Made by a program: the position numbers and the translations under genes. The notes beneath the pieces were generated by a model. It had not been told where the DNA came from. It did no database searches and saw only the letters and a program-made list of their open reading frames with translations. This document shows positions 4,473-24,213 of a DNA stretch of 64,000 bases, one piece after another. Within the stretch, counting starts at the first letter, position 1. Each line of letters starts with the position of its first letter. The stretch lies in IMG/VR virus record IMGVR_UViG_3300024255_000017, positions 1 to 64,000 of that record; one strand, written 5' to 3'. Origin of the DNA: a virus.

Positions 4473-4865
4473 ATGAAGCTACTCTACTGTAATACCTGCA
4501 AGGATACTTTCAGTCTATCGTATACTACCAAGACCTGCCATTGCGGCGAGTCTGGTGGTCATTACGAGGCTGATGGACTAAACGCGAAATACTACGGTAA
4601 CTCGACGCCACTCGGATTTACTAATGATACTTTTAAATTCGCGAGGGAACGACAACCAGAATGGGGTAACGGATTTGAGTTTACCGCGTTCGTTATTCCA
4701 AAGGTTTGTCCTACTATGGTCCATATAGATTATTCAGAGTATATTCCAGTTGCTGATAGTACTTATGATGATGGATACGATTATTTAGAGGAAGATGTGG
4801 CTAAGATAAAGGCAGAAAAAAAATTAGGTAATGCATTTAAACAAACTGATAGTGATGCTATATAA
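4473..4865 (+). CDS. Cys-rich hypothetical protein (possible Zn-binding)
   Basis: CxxC...CxC at the N-terminus. Confidence 0.75.
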   Translation: MKLLYCNTCKDTFSLSYTTKTCHCGESGGHYEADGLNAKYYGNSTPLGFTNDTFKFARERQPEWGNGFEFTAFVIPKVCPTMVHIDYSEYIPVADSTYDDGYDYLEEDVAKIKAEKKLGNAFKQTDSDAI

Positions 4866-4882
4866 TAATAACAAATGGAACG

Positions 4883-5047
4883 ATGAATATGAAGACTAAA
4901 AAAATTAAAAGAACTGCTGAACTCTGTCTATGGTGTTTAGGCAACGGCGCAATCGGACTACTATTACTAACTCTTCTCTTCGCGTTTACGGTGGCGTTCT
5001 GTCATATATTTGGATTGGAAACCTCCTGGGCTAACAATATACTCTAA
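4883..5047 (+). CDS. Small membrane protein, 54 aa
   Basis: Read by hand; basic N-terminus plus hydrophobic stretch GLLLLTLLFAFTVAF. Confidence 0.6.
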   Translation: MNMKTKKIKRTAELCLWCLGNGAIGLLLLTLLFAFTVAFCHIFGLETSWANNIL

Positions 5048-5054
5048 GGGAACT

Positions 5055-5103
5055 ATGTGCGACTATGCAGAATGTGCGACCGCCATTTGAATAATGTGCC
5101 GAC
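5055..5103. repeat. Three spaced copies of ATGTGC(C)GAC
   Basis: 5055-5063, 5072-5080, 5094-5103 in an intergenic gap. Confidence 0.7.
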
Positions 5104-5162
5104 CATCTAAGAACTCAGAAAACAACTCTACATTTTTATATAAACTTTTTTAATTAGAAACC

Positions 5163-5387
5163 ATGTCAAGAAACATTAAAGACTGGACGATCAAAGAACC
5201 TGTTAAGGGTAACCATTACAAATTGTGGCGCCTCCTCCCTGGCTCCGTGTTTACTATCTCTACACCAACTGGAACTGATACCCTTTTGGTGAACAAACAA
5301 AAAGGTAGTTTAACTCATTGTCAGATATTTGACGGTGGAGAGTTTACCGCGATAGACTCTTCTGTTATAGTAACCGCTATAGGTTAA
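5163..5387 (+). CDS. Hypothetical protein
   Basis: ORF track, A-rich leader. Confidence 0.7.
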   Translation: MSRNIKDWTIKEPVKGNHYKLWRLLPGSVFTISTPTGTDTLLVNKQKGSLTHCQIFDGGEFTAIDSSVIVTAIG

Positions 5388-5395
5388 CTAAACAT

Positions 5396-5474
5396 CGGCC
5401 GGTATCTCCTCAAGCTTATACCTTGTAGAAAGAGTAATTGGTTACATGAGAGTTCAAATCTCTCTCGGCCGACC
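5396..5474 (+). tRNA. Non-canonical tRNA-like RNA with UAU (Ile) anticodon-like loop and rearranged arms
   Basis: 7-bp acceptor CGGCCGG/TCGGCCG + A-CC; T arm GAGAG-TTCAAAT-CTCTC; CAAG-CTTATAC-CTTG arm precedes a D-like GTAA-TTGG-TTAC hairpin. Confidence 0.6.
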
Positions 5475-5476
5475 GT

Positions 5477-5503
5477 AAACAAAATACATATTTGCAATAT
5501 AAT
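5477..5503 (+). promoter_or_regulatory. Middle-type promoter AAAC-N17-TATAAT (representative)
   Basis: Same spacing at 7814, 9364, 10026, 13172, 15019, 24223, 32963; N18 at 61743. Confidence 0.7.
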
Positions 5504-5518
5504 AATAAACATAGTAAC

Positions 5519-5824
5519 ATGCTCAAGAAAAAATACCTAAGGAAGAAAGACGATTTAATTAATTCATTAAACAATATTGAAAGGCGAACCATAGTTCTAA
5601 GTATTGAAGTAATTGAAACTTCTAAAATTAAAGATCACCTCATCTATGAATGTGACTATTTAGATAATGGTACTCAAAAGCAAATTAATATTATAGCAAA
5701 GGACATTACTGAAGCTATGCAAAAACTTGAGCCTTATGTAGGAAAGGGAATCCCTGATACTACAACTAATCTAATACTAGGAAGCCAATTGTACCAAGCA
5801 GTACATTTAGATCCGCCTGTATAA
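5519..5824 (+). CDS. Hypothetical protein
   Basis: ORF track; ATG 5519 lies downstream of the promoter, unlike TTG 5492. Confidence 0.7.
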   Translation: MLKKKYLRKKDDLINSLNNIERRTIVLSIEVIETSKIKDHLIYECDYLDNGTQKQINIIAKDITEAMQKLEPYVGKGIPDTTTNLILGSQLYQAVHLDPPV

Positions 5825-5846
5825 ATAAAGAAATAAAAAACTTATT

Positions 5847-6128
5847 ATGACTAAAGAAGATTTAAAAGGACCTAAAGTATTAGTAGACTTTTGGGCATCA
5901 TGGTGTGGACCGTGTAAAGTAATGAAACCTAAACTTGAGAAATTTGCTACTGACAATCCAGATATAGAAGTTATCTTTTGTAATGTAGATGAAGAATCAG
6001 ATCTTGCTAAAGAATACGGTATTAGAAGTATTCCTACACTTATCTATTTTGAAGATGGCGAGATTAAAGGTAAAAAGATTGGAATGGTAGAAGATAAACA
6101 AATCAAAGAAATGATTGATGCTAACTAA
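5847..6128 (+). CDS. trxA: Thioredoxin
   Basis: VDFWASWCGPCK active site, IRSIPT cis-Pro motif. Confidence 0.95.
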   Translation: MTKEDLKGPKVLVDFWASWCGPCKVMKPKLEKFATDNPDIEVIFCNVDEESDLAKEYGIRSIPTLIYFEDGEIKGKKIGMVEDKQIKEMIDAN

Positions 6129-6612: not shown

Positions 6613-6697
6613 GCCGTTGTGATGGAATTGGTAGACATGACAGACTTAAAATCTGTTGGGCTGAAAGCCCGTGGCGGTTCGATTCCGCCCAGCGGTA
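6613..6697 (+). tRNA. tRNA-Leu(TAA)
   Basis: Cloverleaf, ACAGA-CTTAAAA-TCTGT anticodon arm, long variable arm GGGCTGAAAGCCC, GGTTCGATTCC; CCA not encoded. Confidence 0.95.
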
Positions 6698-7229: not shown

Positions 7230-7303
7230 GGACTCGTAGCTCAGCTGGATAGAGCATCGCCCTTCTAAGGCGACGGTCATAGGTTCGAATCCTATCGGGT
7301 TCA
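7230..7303 (+). tRNA. tRNA-Arg(TCT)
   Basis: GCTCAGCTGGATAGAGC D arm, TCGCC-CTTCTAA-GGCGA anticodon arm, GGTTCGAATCC. Confidence 0.95.
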
Positions 7304-9549: not shown

Positions 9550-9966
9550 ATGAAAAATTTTATTTTAACACTCGCTCTAATAGCACTAGTAAGCATTGGC
9601 GCAAACGCACAGAACACAAAAGGAGATTGGTATGTAGGTACTAGTGATTTTACTAACACTGCATGGACTGAATTATCAATCCAACCAACAATCGGATACG
9701 CATTCTCTGATAAGTACATGGTCGGTATGAGTCTTTCTCAAGCTGATTCAACAGAGGACATGACATTAGGTCTAGAAGGAAGATATTTCCACAAAGGATT
9801 TTTTGGATATGTTGCACTAAATGATTTTGATTTTGATCAAGCTCAATTAGGTGTAGGTAGAATGTTTGAATTCCACAAAGGATCTATGTTTGTAGATCCT
9901 AAGATCGTTTATGATCTAGGAATGGAAACAACTAACTTACAGATTGGATTTGGATTAAAATTCTAA
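9550..9966 (+). CDS. Bacteroidetes-type small outer-membrane beta-barrel protein
   Basis: Signal peptide ...ANA|QN, AQxxKGDWYVG start, alternating beta strands, C-terminal GFGLKF BAM signal. Confidence 0.8.
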   Translation: MKNFILTLALIALVSIGANAQNTKGDWYVGTSDFTNTAWTELSIQPTIGYAFSDKYMVGMSLSQADSTEDMTLGLEGRYFHKGFFGYVALNDFDFDQAQLGVGRMFEFHKGSMFVDPKIVYDLGMETTNLQIGFGLKF

Positions 9967-9986
9967 ACTAACTTTATATTAATATC

Positions 9987-10019
9987 AAAACCCAGGATTC
10001 TAGGACCCTGGGTTTTTTT
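9987..10019 (+). terminator. Intrinsic terminator
   Basis: AAAACCCAGG...CCTGGGTTTTTTT. Confidence 0.85.
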
Positions 10020-10095
10020 GTGCTTAAACTATTCATCATTTAGGTATATAATAATAAATAAGGAATGAACTTTATTTTGTAAAAAAAACAAACAA

Positions 10096-10450: not shown

Positions 10451-10523
10451 TGTGCTGTGGTGTAACTGGCAACACGTCTGTTTTTGGTACAGAAGAGTCG
10501 GGGTTCGAGCCCCTGCGGCACAA
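10451..10523 (+). tRNA. tRNA-Gln(TTG)
   Basis: TGTGCTG/CGGCACA acceptor, TCTGT-TTTTGGT-ACAGA anticodon arm, GGTTCGAGCC. Confidence 0.9.
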
Positions 10524-16990: not shown

Positions 16991-18313
16991 ATGACTGAAT
17001 ACACAAACCTTACTTATCTACAATCCTTCTTGGATGAAATGCGATCTTCCTCTTCAGGAAATCATAAAATTGCAACTCTTAAAAAGTATGCTGATAACTC
17101 TGATGAAAATTCTGATAGAGAATTCTTACAGAAAGTTTTCTTCTATACTTACAATCCTTATTTCAAATATAATGTAACTCCTAGGAATTGCAAAAAGAAT
17201 TCAGATTTACTAGGTCACCCAAATACATACGGTAGTATCTTTACCTTATTGGATGATTTAAGAAATAGGGTATGTACCGGTCATACGGCAATTGCAAATG
17301 TAAATAGATTCGTCCTAGAGAATAAACAATGGGAAGATATTATTTACTATATGCTAAACCGAGACCTTAATATGGGATGTGGTACTACTTCTATTAATAA
17401 GGCAATCCACTCAGATTTAATTCCAACCTTTAAGGTCGCTTTAGCAAATGCATATAATCCTAAGAGAGTGGATTTTAAAAGTGGAGAATGGTACGGATCC
17501 AGAAAATTGGATGGAGTAAGATGTATCTGTAGAAAAGAAATGAATACTGTAACATTCTTTTCAAGGAACGGTAAAGAATTTACTACTTTAGGTAATTTGG
17601 AAAATGAAATTTCTAAGATAGGTGGAGACTTTATATTAGACGGAGAAATCTGTATGGTGGATAAAGATGGTAATGAAGACTTCCAAGGAATTATGAAACA
17701 GATTCGAAAGAAGGACCATCAAATTGAAAATCCTAAATTCTTTGTATTTGATTATTTAACTTTAGAGGAATTTGATAACAAGACTGGAACTACACCGCTT
17801 ACTGAAAGACTTAAGAATGGTTATGATATTTTACCAGAAGGAATTAACTCTTCTATGTTGGAATTCTTAAAACAAGAACAGTTAACTACTGAGGAAAGAT
17901 TTACTGAAATTAAAATAGCTGCTGAGGATGCAGGATTTGAAGGAATCATGGTTAGAAAGAATATCGGCTATGAAGGTAAAAGAAGCCATAATCTTCTAAA
18001 GGTTAAAAAATTCCATGATGCTGAATACACGGTATTAGAATGTGTTAACGGAACAATGAGATGGACAGAAAATGGTAAACAAGTTGAAAAGGAAGGATTA
18101 AGTAATATTATAATTGAACATAAAGGTAACCGTGTAAGTGTAGGATCTGGATTCTCTAAAGATCAAAGAGAACATTACCTCAACAATCATAATGAATTAG
18201 TCGGTAAAACCGTAACCGTTCAATATTTTGAAGAAAGTCAAAATCAGAATGGTGGATATTCACTAAGGTTCCCGGTAGTGAAACACATATATGAGAATGG
18301 AAGAAATTGTTAA
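16991..18313 (+). CDS. ATP-dependent DNA ligase
   Basis: KLDGVR, LDGEI, FVFDYL, EGIMVR, LLKVK, SLRFP motifs. Confidence 0.95.
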   Translation: MTEYTNLTYLQSFLDEMRSSSSGNHKIATLKKYADNSDENSDREFLQKVFFYTYNPYFKYNVTPRNCKKNSDLLGHPNTYGSIFTLLDDLRNRVCTGHTAIANVNRFVLENKQWEDIIYYMLNRDLNMGCGTTSINKAIHSDLIPTFKVALANAYNPKRVDFKSGEWYGSRKLDGVRCICRKEMNTVTFFSRNGKEFTTLGNLENEISKIGGDFILDGEICMVDKDGNEDFQGIMKQIRKKDHQIENPKFFVFDYLTLEEFDNKTGTTPLTERLKNGYDILPEGINSSMLEFLKQEQLTTEERFTEIKIAAEDAGFEGIMVRKNIGYEGKRSHNLLKVKKFHDAEYTVLECVNGTMRWTENGKQVEKEGLSNIIIEHKGNRVSVGSGFSKDQREHYLNNHNELVGKTVTVQYFEESQNQNGGYSLRFPVVKHIYENGRNC

Positions 18314-20034: not shown

Positions 20035-23000
20035 ATGGCATTCAATCTAAAAGAATATATCATCTACAGAAATGAAATTAAAAGGGAACTTTTTAATGGT
20101 GAGGTAGATGAAAATTTTAAAGCAGTAGCTAATCCGTGGGTAGACAATAGAACATATGACACTGGGCATATTGTATATCACCCAGTAGAAGTATTAGAAC
20201 CTACCGGTGTTACCAGTGTGGTAACAGAAACTCTAGTTTGGTGGAGAGCAAATAGACGAACTACACAAGGTGTGTTTGTAACAGCTGAGTGGGATATCAT
20301 TGGTGGTATTGGAACTGGCGACGTGACAGTAGGCTCAGCAAATGGTTATGGTAAAATAGTTGTTAATTATACAGGTGCTACACCTTTATTAGCAGCAGCA
20401 AATGATTTTACTTTAAATTCTACAATTGCAAACGATACATTTAGATTAATAGCCGGAGATGGTGTTCAATTACAATATGATAGTACTGTTAATGCAATTA
20501 AATTAATTAACTCTTCTGCTGGTGGTGAAATAAATCAAGGATTAAATATAGGTATAGGCGTAGGTGTACAGAATGTGTTCGGCGGAATGAGTGGTACTAC
20601 TTTAACCTTTAGAGGACTTAATGCATCTAATACATATAGTTCATTAGGTGAACCTTTAGCATTAGCTTTAAATTCACCTAACCAATCTGTTGTTTATAAT
20701 TTTGATTCTTCTTTAATTGACTTAGCAACTCTTAATAATAACAATACCGATATTAATAGCCTAGGAAATGTTAATGCATCTGCAGCAGGAACTTCTGAAT
20801 TTTTACAATATGATGGTAACAATTGGGTAAACGTAACGGCAGCTGCTGCTGGTTTGCTTGGAAGTCAAGGTGTAACCGGGTCCCAAGGTTTACAAGGTTT
20901 ACAAGGTAATGATGGTTTCGGCTTACAGGGTACTATAGGTGCACAAGGTATACAGGGAACTCAAGGTTTACAAGGTTTACAAGGTAATGATGGTTTCGGC
21001 TTACAAGGTACGCAAGGTGTACAAGGAGAAGCATCAACTATATCAGGACCTCCTGGTACACAAGGTGCACAAGGTGTAGGATTGCAAGGTGCTAGCGGTG
21101 GTACTGGTTTACAAGGATTTGTAGGTACTCAAGGAACCAAAGGAGATCAAGGTGGTTTTGGTGGTGCTTCTTTTGATTATAATTTCAATATACAAACATC
21201 TGTGGCTGATCCAGGCTTTAGTTATGTTTCTGTAAATAATACAGATCAATATTTAGCTAACATAATGGCCATTAACGACTTTGGTGTTACAGGAAATAAT
21301 ATATCAACCTTTTTAGAAACTATAAGAAGTTCCACATCAATACCTAAAGGTCATGTAAGGATTACATCACAAAGCGATGCTAATGAATTTATACTTTGGC
21401 AAATAACAGAAGTGTATGATAGACCTTCTTCTGGTGGAACATGGTGGGAATTAGATGTTGTACCAGTTGCTTATACGGAAAATGCTCCATTTATAATGGA
21501 TGAAGATGTTCTAGTATCATTTGTTGTAACAGGTGATAGAGGAGCTCAAGGTACTGAAGGAAGTGGTACACAAGGAACAACAGGTTTACAAGGAACTCAA
21601 GGTTTACAAGGAACTTTAGGTACTCAAGGTATTCAAGGTTTACAAGGCGTCCAAGGTTTACAAGGAACTGATGGTTTACAAGGAACACAAGGTTTACAAG
21701 GAACTGATGGTTTACAAGGAACGGATGGAACACAAGGTGTACAAGGTTCAGGTTCTCAAGGAACTCAAGGTTTACAAGGTTTACAAGGAACTCAAGGTTT
21801 ACAAGGTTTACAAGGTTCAGGTACTCAAGGAACTCAAGGTTTACAAGGTTTACAAGGTTCAGGTTCTCAAGGTGTACAAGGTTTATCCGGTTCTATAAGT
21901 GGATCCGTTGCATACGGTTCTATGCTATTAGATAGTACAGCACCAGGAATAACATTAACAAATTCTTATGTAGGTTTACTATTATCTTCTGGTGAAATAA
22001 ATCAAATGACATACGTTGCTTCAGGTGGAAGCCCGCAAGGTAATGTACTAAGTATTGATGCTAATGAAGCCGGCAATTATGAAATTAACTTTACTCTTAG
22101 TGGAGTAGCCGCATCAACTGTTGGTATTTTTGCTGAAATATTTGTTAATGGTACTCCATACGGTGTAAGTGGTGCTACTGAAATCCGATCAACTTTTAAT
22201 GCAAACGATTATAATAGCATGTCTACTGTAGATATATTGGATCTTAATGGCGGTGATCAAGTTGAGGTTAGAATTAAGGACACAGCAGGTACTTTTGTAA
22301 ATTTCGCAACAGCAAATATTTCACTTACATTAGTTAAACTTGTTGGTAATGGAGATCCTGGTACACAAGGAACACAAGGTTTACAAGGTATTTCTGGTTC
22401 AGGTAGCCAAGGTACATTAGGAGCCCAGGGAATAGATGGTTCGCAAGGAATTCAAGGATTAGACGGTTCACAAGGAACTCAAGGATTACAAGGTTTACAA
22501 GGTTTACAAGGAACCGATGGTTCTCAAGGTTTACAAGGAACTGATGGTTCTCAAGGTATTCAAGGTTTACAAGGTTTACAAGGAACTGATGGAACACAAG
22601 GAGCCCAAGGTTTACAAGGTTTACAAGGTATACTCGGCGCACAAGGTATACAAGGCTTACAAGGAGCTGTAGGAAACACCGGTTCACAAGGAACTATAGG
22701 AATTAACGGCTTAGGTTCTGGTTGTATTGCCGGTGGTACATTTGGCTGGTCAACCGTTGCCAATACTTTAAATCCCGGCAATCCAAATGTCATTTCGATG
22801 AATGCCCAGACTACAGGTGGTGTTACTATAATTTATATAGGTAGTAATATTATTCATCCAGTTGCCCTTAATGTAGGTGACACTATTTCATTTAACATAT
22901 CACAAAATGGAATTAATGCATTATATACGGTAAACAGTATTACCGGTAATGTTGGATATGATGCTCTAGGTGTTACATTCCAAACTGGAAATTATACTAT

Positions 23001-24213
23001 ATTACCTGCGTCCACCCCTGGATTATTTGATGACTATACATATTGTATATACCCTGCAGTTGTGGCAGGATCTCAAGGAACTCAAGGAACTAATGGTTTA
23101 CAAGGAACTAATGGTTTACAAGGAGCTAATGGAGCTAATGGTGCATGCGTTGAAATACCAGGAGCAAACTATATCTCACAGCTTCCATTAAATTCTGGTT
23201 CTCTTGCTTCTTTTGAAGTAGCAGTTAATGTAGCATCCGGTGGAATCACTAGTAATATTACCGAAATATTTTTAGGACTTGCTAGTGGAGCTCTACAACC
23301 GAGCACGGGTTTACCTCCAGGTAGTACAATAACATTATCAATATCACCTGCAAATACTACCACATCAATATTTACTGTAAACAGTTCTACTATTGTTGGT
23401 GTAACCGGAATTGTTTATGATGTTACTTACGTTAGTGGTTTAGATTTTAGTACCACCGGTCAGGACCATCGATTATGTACTTCAACCGCAGGTGTACAAG
23501 GTGTACTCGGTTTACAAGGTATACTCGGTGTACAAGGTGTACTCGGTTTACAAGGTGTACAGGGTGCAGGTGGAGGAAGTGGAACCGAATTAAGAAGAGA
23601 AATAGTAAAATCATCGTTTAGATCTCCTACAGGTTTACCTGCTTATATAAGTGGTGATCCAGGAACTAGTTCATTTAGAATAGGTTCTCCTAGTGATAGT
23701 AATTTAACTGATGGTGGTGGATGGAATGCTGCGTATTGGAGTTCTACCACTACTGGTGGAATACTAACTGGTGTTAATGGAACTCAAGACCAATTCTTGT
23801 TAATGGGTAATGGTATTCCTTTAACAAAGAGTTATGATATTAATGATCAGATATCCTTTAGAGGAGTGGTCGTTGGCCAAAAAGCAAGTGGTGCATATAC
23901 GTCATCTTCAAAAATTGCAATTAATTTATATAAACTAAAATGTGGTATACTTGGCGATGGAACTAATGAATGGGAAACTGTATCATCTACTGTTGTATTG
24001 TCCAGTAACGTTGTAACCGAAACTAATATTGACGGTGAAGGTAGAGGTAGGATTTGTATTAATGGCGCATTTACACTTGATCAACCTGTTAATAGATTTG
24101 TTGAATATTTAGCGGTAGGTTTTGCTACAACTGTTGATGGTGATGAAAGTTTCGGTGGAAATGACATTATTGCATCTTATGTATTATATGAAGGTACTGA
24201 CCCACAGCCTTAA
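20035..24213 (+). CDS. Collagen-like (G-X-Q) fibre protein
   Basis: Several GLQ/GTQ triple-helix blocks separated by globular beta-rich domains. Confidence 0.85.
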   Translation: MAFNLKEYIIYRNEIKRELFNGEVDENFKAVANPWVDNRTYDTGHIVYHPVEVLEPTGVTSVVTETLVWWRANRRTTQGVFVTAEWDIIGGIGTGDVTVGSANGYGKIVVNYTGATPLLAAANDFTLNSTIANDTFRLIAGDGVQLQYDSTVNAIKLINSSAGGEINQGLNIGIGVGVQNVFGGMSGTTLTFRGLNASNTYSSLGEPLALALNSPNQSVVYNFDSSLIDLATLNNNNTDINSLGNVNASAAGTSEFLQYDGNNWVNVTAAAAGLLGSQGVTGSQGLQGLQGNDGFGLQGTIGAQGIQGTQGLQGLQGNDGFGLQGTQGVQGEASTISGPPGTQGAQGVGLQGASGGTGLQGFVGTQGTKGDQGGFGGASFDYNFNIQTSVADPGFSYVSVNNTDQYLANIMAINDFGVTGNNISTFLETIRSSTSIPKGHVRITSQSDANEFILWQITEVYDRPSSGGTWWELDVVPVAYTENAPFIMDEDVLVSFVVTGDRGAQGTEGSGTQGTTGLQGTQGLQGTLGTQGIQGLQGVQGLQGTDGLQGTQGLQGTDGLQGTDGTQGVQGSGSQGTQGLQGLQGTQGLQGLQGSGTQGTQGLQGLQGSGSQGVQGLSGSISGSVAYGSMLLDSTAPGITLTNSYVGLLLSSGEINQMTYVASGGSPQGNVLSIDANEAGNYEINFTLSGVAASTVGIFAEIFVNGTPYGVSGATEIRSTFNANDYNSMSTVDILDLNGGDQVEVRIKDTAGTFVNFATANISLTLVKLVGNGDPGTQGTQGLQGISGSGSQGTLGAQGIDGSQGIQGLDGSQGTQGLQGLQGLQGTDGSQGLQGTDGSQGIQGLQGLQGTDGTQGAQGLQGLQGILGAQGIQGLQGAVGNTGSQGTIGINGLGSGCIAGGTFGWSTVANTLNPGNPNVISMNAQTTGGVTIIYIGSNIIHPVALNVGDTISFNISQNGINALYTVNSITGNVGYDALGVTFQTGNYTILPASTPGLFDDYTYCIYPAVVAGSQGTQGTNGLQGTNGLQGANGANGACVEIPGANYISQLPLNSGSLASFEVAVNVASGGITSNITEIFLGLASGALQPSTGLPPGSTITLSISPANTTTSIFTVNSSTIVGVTGIVYDVTYVSGLDFSTTGQDHRLCTSTAGVQGVLGLQGILGVQGVLGLQGVQGAGGGSGTELRREIVKSSFRSPTGLPAYISGDPGTSSFRIGSPSDSNLTDGGGWNAAYWSSTTTGGILTGVNGTQDQFLLMGNGIPLTKSYDINDQISFRGVVVGQKASGAYTSSSKIAINLYKLKCGILGDGTNEWETVSSTVVLSSNVVTETNIDGEGRGRICINGAFTLDQPVNRFVEYLAVGFATTVDGDESFGGNDIIASYVLYEGTDPQP
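21544..21885. repeat. 9-bp period CAAGGTTTA-type coding repeats (also ~20870-21150 and 22360-22700)
   Basis: Encode G-X-Q collagen triplets. Confidence 0.9.

Follow-up and report, generated by a model that had tools for sequence, protein, structure and literature searches.

A widespread family of phage tRNA-like genes with isoleucine anticodons and a probably rewired core

Introduction

To our knowledge, bacterial and cytoplasmic transfer RNAs (tRNAs) are all taken to have the strand order of the cloverleaf, and the known exceptions are the shrunken tRNAs of mitochondria. In the red alga Cyanidioschyzon merolae the halves of tRNA genes are permuted, and processing restores the normal cloverleaf. 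Mitochondrial tRNAs that lack the D arm, for example metazoan tRNA-Ser(AGY), are aminoacylated and bind EF-Tu according to the accessible parts of two reports (PMC4013460, PMC7609411); hence a cloverleaf is not strictly required. For isoleucine (Ile), isoacceptors with UAU are rarer than those with GAU and lysidine-modified CAU anticodons; the tRNA-Ile(UAU) of Mycoplasma mobile is an example (PMC3575796). Here we analysed a tRNA-like gene at 5396–5474 on the plus strand of IMG/VR virus record IMGVR_UViG_3300024255_000017; the window means positions 1 to 64,000 of that record, the whole stretch of 64,000 nucleotides (nt) under analysis.

The gene is a member of a real and widespread phage family, and most likely it encodes a working elongator tRNA-Ile(UAU) with a rewired core. 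A sequence-only reading of the locus had already proposed a non-cloverleaf tRNA-like gene with an isoleucine anticodon, in which G18 and G19 are kept for the elbow, and the family alignment agrees that such a gene is conserved. The wiring that the alignment supports differs from the one first proposed.

Results

Fold of the gene from homologues

Direct reading of 5396–5474 (+) agrees with the letters and parts described before. The full order is CGGCCGG-UA-UCUC-CU-CAAG-CUUAUAC-CUUG-U-AG-AAA-GAG-UAAUUGGUUAC-AU-GAGAG-UUCAAAU-CUCUC-UCGGCCG-A-CC, and the gene body covers 5396–5472 (77 nt). Two fold models were compared by counting pairs in an alignment (A1) of 132 of the 142 distinct members; nine sequences with wrong ends (73–75 or 82 nt; L006, L008, L017, L031, L075, L092, L125, L185 and L218) and one chance match (L145) were left out. 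In the model counted here, the acceptor, T and 4-bp anticodon stems are standard and are joined by a C-G pair above the anticodon stem, a long-range 3-bp helix, U8-A14 and R15-Y48 (R, purine; Y, pyrimidine; N, any base). Covariation in homologues, the test that had been named for this locus, was strong: 98.6% of the cells were paired, against 70.6% in shuffled alignments, none of 500 of which reached the observed value, and about 41% (39–45%) when partners were slid; in 18 of the 22 pairs of the model both sides have changed. The long-range helix CUC/GAG was paired in 100% of cells, with pair types CG/AU/UA and CG/UA/AU/GC/UG. U8-A14 (A14 at 5436) was U-A in 132 of 132 rows, so that it is uninformative for covariation. 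The parts of the gene are as follows.

5396–5402 (+): acceptor 5′ strand (positions 1–7), CGGCCGG, pairing with UCGGCCG at 5465–5471 in 7 pairs, G7-U66 among them; 7 of 7 pairs with both-side changes and 98.1% of cells paired over 132 homologues.
5403–5404 (+): U8 and A9, both invariant in A1; a D hairpin is absent downstream.
5405–5408 (+): U and CUC, a D-stem strand continuous with the anticodon stem; CUC pairs with GAG at 5432–5434 in 100% of cells.
5409–5410 (+): C (26-like) and U (27); C pairs with G5428 in 132 of 132 rows, and U27 faces U5426 (U or C across homologues, as read from A1).
5411–5425 (+): anticodon hairpin, CAAG, loop CUUAUAC, CUUG; anticodon UAU at 5417–5419, with U33 and A37; 4 of 4 stem pairs with both-side changes over the homologues.
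5426–5431 (+): U-A-G-AAA, which links the anticodon stem to the second D-stem strand; G and AAA do not vary in A1, but both search patterns demanded them.
5432–5435 (+): GAG and U, second D-stem strand, in the place of 10–13; pairs with 5406–5408, and the D-loop follows directly.
5436–5444 (+): D-loop A14 A15 U U G18 G19 U U A21; A14, G18 and G19 are invariant in A1.
5445–5447 (+): link C-A-U to the T stem; U5447 stands in the place of Y48 and covaries with R15.
5448–5464 (+): T arm, GAGAG, loop UUCAAAU, CUCUC; 4 of 5 pairs change on both sides and 98% of cells are paired.
5465–5472 (+): acceptor 3′ strand (66–72), part of the covarying stem, and discriminator A73.
5473–5474 (+): CC, which comes next to A73 and is followed by G; A76 is therefore not encoded and CCA is incomplete in the gene.

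C32, U33, A35, U36 and A37 were invariant in A1, partly because the search patterns imposed them. In the T arm, G53-C61, U55 and C56 were invariant over the 132 homologues, and the loop has U54 U55 C56 and A58. The linker may have a role in the groove of the D stem. Class-1 genes have a pyrimidine-pyrimidine mismatch 27/43 on top of the anticodon stem, which leaves 4 Watson-Crick pairs. Anticodon stems of 4 bp in bacteria have been linked to relaxed wobble in the accessible part of PMC13092985.

The pair R15/Y48

Column 42 (R15) against column 53 over all rows of A1 gave A-U 105, G-C 22, G-U 2 and other combinations 3. In the 76 rows obtained without a pattern constraint on it, the pair was A-U in 49, G-C in 22, A-C in 2, G-U in 2 and G-G in 1 (Fisher test 1.4e-14, with rows taken regardless of relatedness, as in the shuffles). 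This covariation behaves like that of the Levitt pair 15-48 of ordinary tRNAs. Two members, L209 and L219, have a common acceptor stem, yet one has A-U and the other G-C at R15/Y48; thus the change is not one inherited event. Where the search pattern left these columns free, the rows read U-A-R-Y-Y-G-G-U-Y-R-C-A-Y downstream of the second D-stem strand. This stretch behaves as a single-stranded D-loop (A14 R15 Y16 Y17 G18 G19) followed by three bases.

The sequence-only reading had folded the same letters in another way: the D arm is missing, the anticodon stem is extended, and a GUAA-UUGG-UUAC hairpin takes the place of the variable arm. The minimum-energy fold of the single sequence does predict the GUAA/UUAC hairpin, which there borrows the last G of GAG, and Rfam aligns the gene as a tRNA with a deleted D arm and a long variable insert. 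This fold has −21.1 kcal/mol (z −2.21) and only moderately beats shuffled sequences, 5 of 200 of which were equally good. The homologues speak against the hairpin. Over 132 homologues, compensatory changes are absent from all 4 of its pairs; 58 of 127 rows break pair 41-49, and in the 22 rows in which column 39 has changed so as to stay paired with column 11, pair 39-51 is always lost; moreover, column 42 covaries with column 53 and not with its hairpin partner. The additional U-A pair with 5427, with a bulged U, by which the anticodon stem had been extended was paired in 96 rows, unpaired in 35 and compensated in none, and we regard it as optional. A working tRNA in that fold is therefore improbable, and the supposed hairpin is better taken as a D-loop. 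The D and anticodon arms are thus not simply swapped: one D-stem strand remains after U8-A9, and the other, together with the D-loop, lies past the anticodon arm.

A divergent second subfamily

Weaker model matches beside strong ones in three contigs of metagenome-assembled genomes (MAGs) led to a second subfamily of 14 instances, 11 of them distinct. Its loop is always CUGAUAC (GAU), and its acceptor, anticodon and T stems covary. The pattern is UA-ACC-NN-arm-ANNNA-GGU-A14-R15-N-GG-UUGARAA-Y48, with a 5-bp anticodon stem and a shorter D-loop. These sequences had no part in framing the R15/Y48 hypothesis, and in the 11 distinct genes the pair is A-U in 6 and G-C in 5 without exceptions. A different wiring was considered for this subfamily and dropped. 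The base after AGGUA covaries with the one that precedes the T stem, and the second subfamily is therefore best read as sharing the wiring of the first, with a D-loop that is shorter. Three MAG contigs labelled Saprospiraceae have a GAU gene of this kind (L235:7210-7286, L311:4506-4582, L264:4553-4629) 178–390 nt upstream of a class-1 UAU gene. The viral loci L348–L358 also carry second-subfamily genes.

Detection by tRNA finders

It had been expected that standard scanners would miss the gene, and they did. ARAGORN reported Leu(taa) at 6613, Arg(tct) at 7230 and Gln(ttg) at 10451 in the window, and Rfam at gathering scores gave the same three ordinary tRNAs; the rewired gene was absent from both outputs. 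With relaxed thresholds the Rfam model RF00005 scored it at 26.5 bits against a gathering score of 29, and aligned 4 nt in place of the 15-nt D arm and an 18-nt insert in the variable region. The homologue from Streptomyces phage Jay2Jay reaches 30.8 bits with RF00005. A covariance model built from homologues (R1) gave the window gene 95.2 bits (E 2.9e-21), far above chance, and the next best match in the window was the ordinary tRNA-Gln with 19.7 bits. ARAGORN overlapped only 3 of the 213 rewired copies in 210 viral loci. It reported no transfer-messenger RNA in the window, and the anticodon arm of the rewired gene is intact. Phage tRNA inventories and codon-compensation analyses miss a probable Ile tRNA.

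Family size and distribution

Two pattern scans of IMG/VR, each with its anchor in another part of the molecule, found at least 115 and at least 120 loci. Among the matches listed, 215 instances were counted, with the acceptor paired 7/7 in 164 and 6/7 in 44. They comprise 147 distinct sequences; 125 of these have a length of exactly 77 nt, discriminator A occurs in 133, and CCA is encoded in 15. Most members have C at position 74 despite this low number of encoded CCA ends.

Sensitive blastn against cultured and deposited phages found the gene in a 462-kb uncultured phage, in the cultured crAss-like phage Kehishuvirus tikkala of Bacteroides cellulosilyticus, where it is unannotated between tRNA-Trp and tRNA-Met (OQ198717.1 95577-95653), and in the crAss-like cr130_1. 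With two other members as queries, blastn matched 77 records of cultured Streptomyces phages of the Samistivirus/BE-cluster type. Their copies are rewired Ile(GAU) genes, for example in Jay2Jay (L341:1495-1571; NC_029098.1 75237-75313) and EGole (L342:295-371), both of which score 94.9 bits with R1. Among the Streptomyces records listed the match is unannotated except in EGole (two records), in which the same 77 nt are called tRNA-Leu.

When one genome was scanned for each prokaryote species, 99 loci matched the pattern, with 47 strong model matches in 46 loci. All strong matches among L229–L308 are on MAG or uncultured assemblies, and 9 of the 47 are in L309–L327. Pattern matches in isolate genomes (Halobacillus, Pedobacter, Altibacter, Kangiella, Pontibacter, Pseudomonas thermotolerans, Chitinophaga, Desertivirga) had no model match and were discarded as chance.

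Megablast of window positions 4800–6100 against cultured phages gave no match. A 595-aa protein of the window is closest to proteins of Bacteroidota jumbo phages (Tenacibaculum PTm1 and pT24, Flavobacterium MaF61, Chryseobacterium MA9V), and the 462-kb uncultured phage, which also carries the rewired gene, is among its closest matches as well. The sequencing runs that contain the stretch are labelled seawater or marine metagenomes.

One reading of the gene would be a decaying pseudogene, a rearrangement scar or an attachment-site remnant without own function. Its score under standard tRNA-finder thresholds would fit this, and so would one clearly degenerate copy, L243:912-987 (39.6 bits), which has lost G18 G19 and part of the T arm, lies about 110 nt from the intact rewired gene L243:727-803 and is probably a decayed duplicate. 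Against this stand hundreds of copies in unrelated phage groups, with all helices maintained by compensatory change, and it is this covariation that contradicts decay. In nine sister contigs the gene is 97–99% identical while the flanks are 66–95% identical, and one of the two changes turns G7-U66 into G7-C66. We counted this pattern for a working tRNA, as it suggests purifying selection, and consider a functionless remnant very improbable. In L130, two rewired genes (9881-9957 and 9971-10047), one GAU and one UAU, lie 13 nt apart, and a second locus has the same pairing.

Isoleucine anticodons

With a pattern that left the loop free, NAU was found in 66 of 66 real distinct genes among the matches listed, one further match being chance. 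The loops were CUUAUAC in 40, CUGAUAA in 17, CUUAUAU in 4, CUUAUAA in 2, CUCAUAA in 2 and CUGAUAC in 1. The expectation that UAU itself would be conserved thus failed, as UAU, GAU and a few CAU occur in the family; the anticodon nevertheless always belongs to the Ile box. An IMG/VR scan for the layout with position 35 other than A matched 6 loci, all of one unrelated coding sequence without model match, and a scan with A35 and position 36 other than T matched 0 loci. These 6 chance matches were the only candidates for non-isoleucine members in the two scans. Within reach of the scan patterns, the layout is confined to isoleucine anticodons.

The simplest account of this restriction is one origin from a tRNA-Ile followed by anticodon changes limited to those that isoleucyl-tRNA synthetase (IleRS) tolerates, and such a limit argues that the RNA would be charged by IleRS. 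A73 and A37 are identity elements of bacterial IleRS, and A37 is the site of N6-threonylcarbamoyladenosine (t6A); both bases are present in the window gene. Why isoleucine tRNAs alone adopt the rewired layout is an issue raised by these data.

Codon use and tRNA arrays

ATA codons are indeed frequent in the window, as had been stated, with 504 of 1222 Ile codons in 47 open reading frames (ORFs), or 28.8 per 1000 codons, at a window G+C of 33.2%. All four phage tRNAs in the window (Leu-UAA, Arg-UCU, Gln-UUG and the rewired UAU) read heavily used A-ending codons (per 1000 codons: TTA 45.5, AGA 23.9, CAA 30.6, ATA 28.8). In the 81-kb record, which is ~31% complete according to CheckV, we found one rewired copy and no ordinary tRNA-Ile.

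The rewired gene fills Ile slots in phage tRNA arrays. In the 24-tRNA array of Kehishuvirus tikkala, Ile is covered by the rewired GAU gene together with a UAU gene, the sole ordinary Ile tRNA there. In two arrays of 19–23 tRNAs from high-G+C Actinomycetota MAGs (L288:1450-4200 and L241:478-2600; one contig has 712 kb), the rewired UAU gene comes directly after an ordinary Ile(gat). Co-occurrence was counted in 210 viral loci with a mean length of 8.9 kb, 190 of which have other tRNAs. The rewired UAU gene was found with an ordinary UAU in 0 loci, with an ordinary GAU in 18 and without ordinary Ile in 142, and the rewired GAU gene was found with an ordinary UAU in 12 and with an ordinary GAU in 7.

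These arrays bear on another explanation, by which the RNA folds like tRNA-Ile but stays outside translation, as a mimic or decoy that diverts a host factor (for example an acetylating toxin or an anticodon nuclease) or otherwise protects the host tRNA-Ile. The 7 loci with rewired and ordinary GAU together, and Jay2Jay, which combines the rewired gene with ordinary Ile(GAU) and Ile(UAU), show that the rewired gene is not always needed for decoding and would suit a decoy. In Streptomyces phages, the copy is located just downstream of a small nucleotidyltransferase gene with a borderline match to the RNA-repair family RlaP (PF10127; 23.1 bits against a cut-off of 23). This nucleotidyltransferase has 173 aa, and an FtsK-like gene follows the rewired gene. 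Phage tRNAs that counter tRNA-directed defences are also an established theme in the accessible parts of PMC10264068 and PMC11464382. However, a decoy has no need for an intact 7/5 acceptor-T helix, A73, U33 and A37 plus all three Ile anticodons. It would also not be expected to avoid an ordinary UAU in every locus while standing beside an ordinary GAU in 18, nor to take the Ile slot in arrays with one tRNA per anticodon, and no tRNA-Ile-specific nuclease was identified in this analysis. The evidence favours a decoy less than a working tRNA, and we think a decoy unlikely.

RNA-labelled libraries and neighbouring genes

Nine RNA-labelled seawater runs contain the stretch. Logan contigs from such libraries carry no end, CCA or strand information, and DNA carry-over is possible. 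In X4 the depth over 5409–5495 was 30.9, against 1.6 and 5.2 alongside; this peak comes from a contig with A5458G, a relative's copy, and hence is not evidence of expression. A contig of run X1 passes from the end of tRNA-Arg (window 7304) through 13 other letters into the body of a rewired gene (joined at 5402). These 13 letters match the acceptor of L125, which points to a related phage with a different gene order, not to processed RNA.

Around the gene, 15 promoter-like sites were predicted against 11.0 ± 3.2 expected, and 0 terminators. The small flanking ORFs at 5163–5387 and 5492–5824 have no PHROG family match. Other genes of the window encode a thioredoxin-domain protein (5847–6128, phrog_22), an ATP-dependent DNA ligase (16991–18313, phrog_114) and a 1392-aa collagen-like tail fibre protein (20035–24213).

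Discussion

According to our model, the gene would encode an elongator tRNA-Ile(UAU) with which the phage reads its own abundant AUA codons. The acceptor stem (7 bp), the T arm (5 bp) and the anticodon hairpin would be standard, and the D stem would be formed by CUC directly after U8-A9 and GAG past the anticodon arm. The strand after U8-A9 is continuous with the anticodon stem and is hence assigned to 22–25, and the strand past the anticodon arm leads into the D-loop and so stands for 10–13; both assignments follow from strand connectivity. The chain would then run from 9 to 22–25, 26, the anticodon arm, the linker (N-G-AAA), 10–13, the D-loop, three bases ending in 48 and the T arm. The contacts U8-A14, R15-Y48, G18-U55 and G19-C56 may still form and give an L shape. 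Counting from the sequence, the stacked layers of the anticodon limb are U.U, 3 bp, C-G, U.U and 4 bp, ten in all, and ten is also the number given by the D stem, 26.44 and the anticodon stem of an ordinary tRNA. After transcription and processing, a host enzyme would complete CCA, host IleRS would charge the RNA through A73, A37 and the NAU anticodon, and the product would bind EF-Tu and decode. The earlier suggestion that a UAU gene bypasses TilS may also hold.

Several points weigh against this interpretation. The L shape and the three-dimensional reading are deduced from the sequence. The shuffles and the Fisher test do not account for relatedness of the rows, and part of the apparent conservation was imposed by the search patterns. 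In the window gene, A76 is not encoded, and besides U27.U43 there are only 4 Watson-Crick pairs in the anticodon stem. The 7 viral loci with rewired and ordinary GAU show redundancy, and Jay2Jay with its two ordinary Ile tRNAs speaks against a purely decoding role. Contigs from four RNA-labelled libraries (X1, X2, X4 and X6) show low, roughly even depth over ORFs and tRNAs alike. All five cultured jumbo-phage relatives (Tenacibaculum PTm1 and pT24, Sphingomonas PAU, Flavobacterium MaF61 and Chryseobacterium MA9V-1) lack a copy, in a search that recovered the gene in 3 of 3 control records. Even so, a working tRNA-Ile with a rewired core seems to us the most probable reading.

Why such a core should be kept is a more tentative matter. 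It might be an adaptation which keeps the surfaces for IleRS, EF-Tu and the ribosome and drops the D-arm and variable-loop surface used by a host factor; candidates for this factor are tRNases, acetylating toxins and modification enzymes. If so, horizontal transfer would have carried a defence-proof tRNA-Ile to phages of various hosts, Bacteroidota and Actinomycetota among them. In a variant of this idea, the 4-bp anticodon stem alters wobble reading of AUN codons. Taken jointly, the two variants remain rather doubtful, and if either were true, this would be the first full-size cytoplasmic tRNA from nature whose strands depart from the cloverleaf order.

The layout was not described in the full-text literature that we searched; subscription journals and supplements lie outside that search, and the supplements of PMC5389517 could hold such sequences. 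Hundreds of phage contigs carry members of the family, as do cultured phages that infect Streptomyces and Bacteroides. A full-length family in which reordered strands rebuild the L core would show that the machinery reads the fold and not the connectivity. With it one could test, on a natural example, how tRNAs fold, how permuted tRNAs can be engineered, and what IleRS, RNase P, the CCA enzyme and modification enzymes recognise.

Comparison with known tRNAs

Ordinary bacterial and phage tRNA-Ile shares with the rewired gene the 7-bp acceptor, A73, the 5-bp T stem with a UUCRANY loop, the 7-nt anticodon loop with U33, A37 and NAU anticodons, and a length of ~77 nt. Its D-loop is also alike, for example AGUUGGUUA in L239:2362-2435, and the ordinary Ile tRNAs of the same contigs have anticodon loops like those of the rewired genes. 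Unlike ordinary tRNA-Ile, the rewired gene has no D hairpin between 9 and 26 and no ordinary variable loop; a long-range helix that encloses the anticodon arm serves as its D stem, and its D-loop comes after that arm. The 27/43 pyrimidine mismatch and the sub-threshold RF00005 score of 26.5 bits are further differences.

The permuted genes of C. merolae likewise have a non-standard order of parts. However, in the rewired gene the acceptor strands stand at the ends of the gene as usual, the reordering is confined to the core strands, and the mature RNA itself would be non-cloverleaf.

D-arm-lacking mitochondrial tRNAs, as far as the accessible parts of the reports cited above describe them, likewise have no D hairpin after the acceptor stem. 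In contrast to the rewired gene, which has 77 nt and keeps A14, R15, G18 and G19, they are shortened and flexible and have lost the contact between D-loop and T-loop. The rewired gene further differs from them by its 15-48 covariation, and it would use the bacterial cytoplasmic machinery.

Allo-tRNAs of the 8/4 and 9/3 types (Mukai et al., PMC5389517) are also non-standard, come from metagenomes and phages, and have UAU among their predominant anticodons, according to the part of that paper available to us. They combine an altered acceptor/T split and serine-type long variable arms with the cloverleaf order, whereas the rewired gene has the 7/5 split and reordered core strands.

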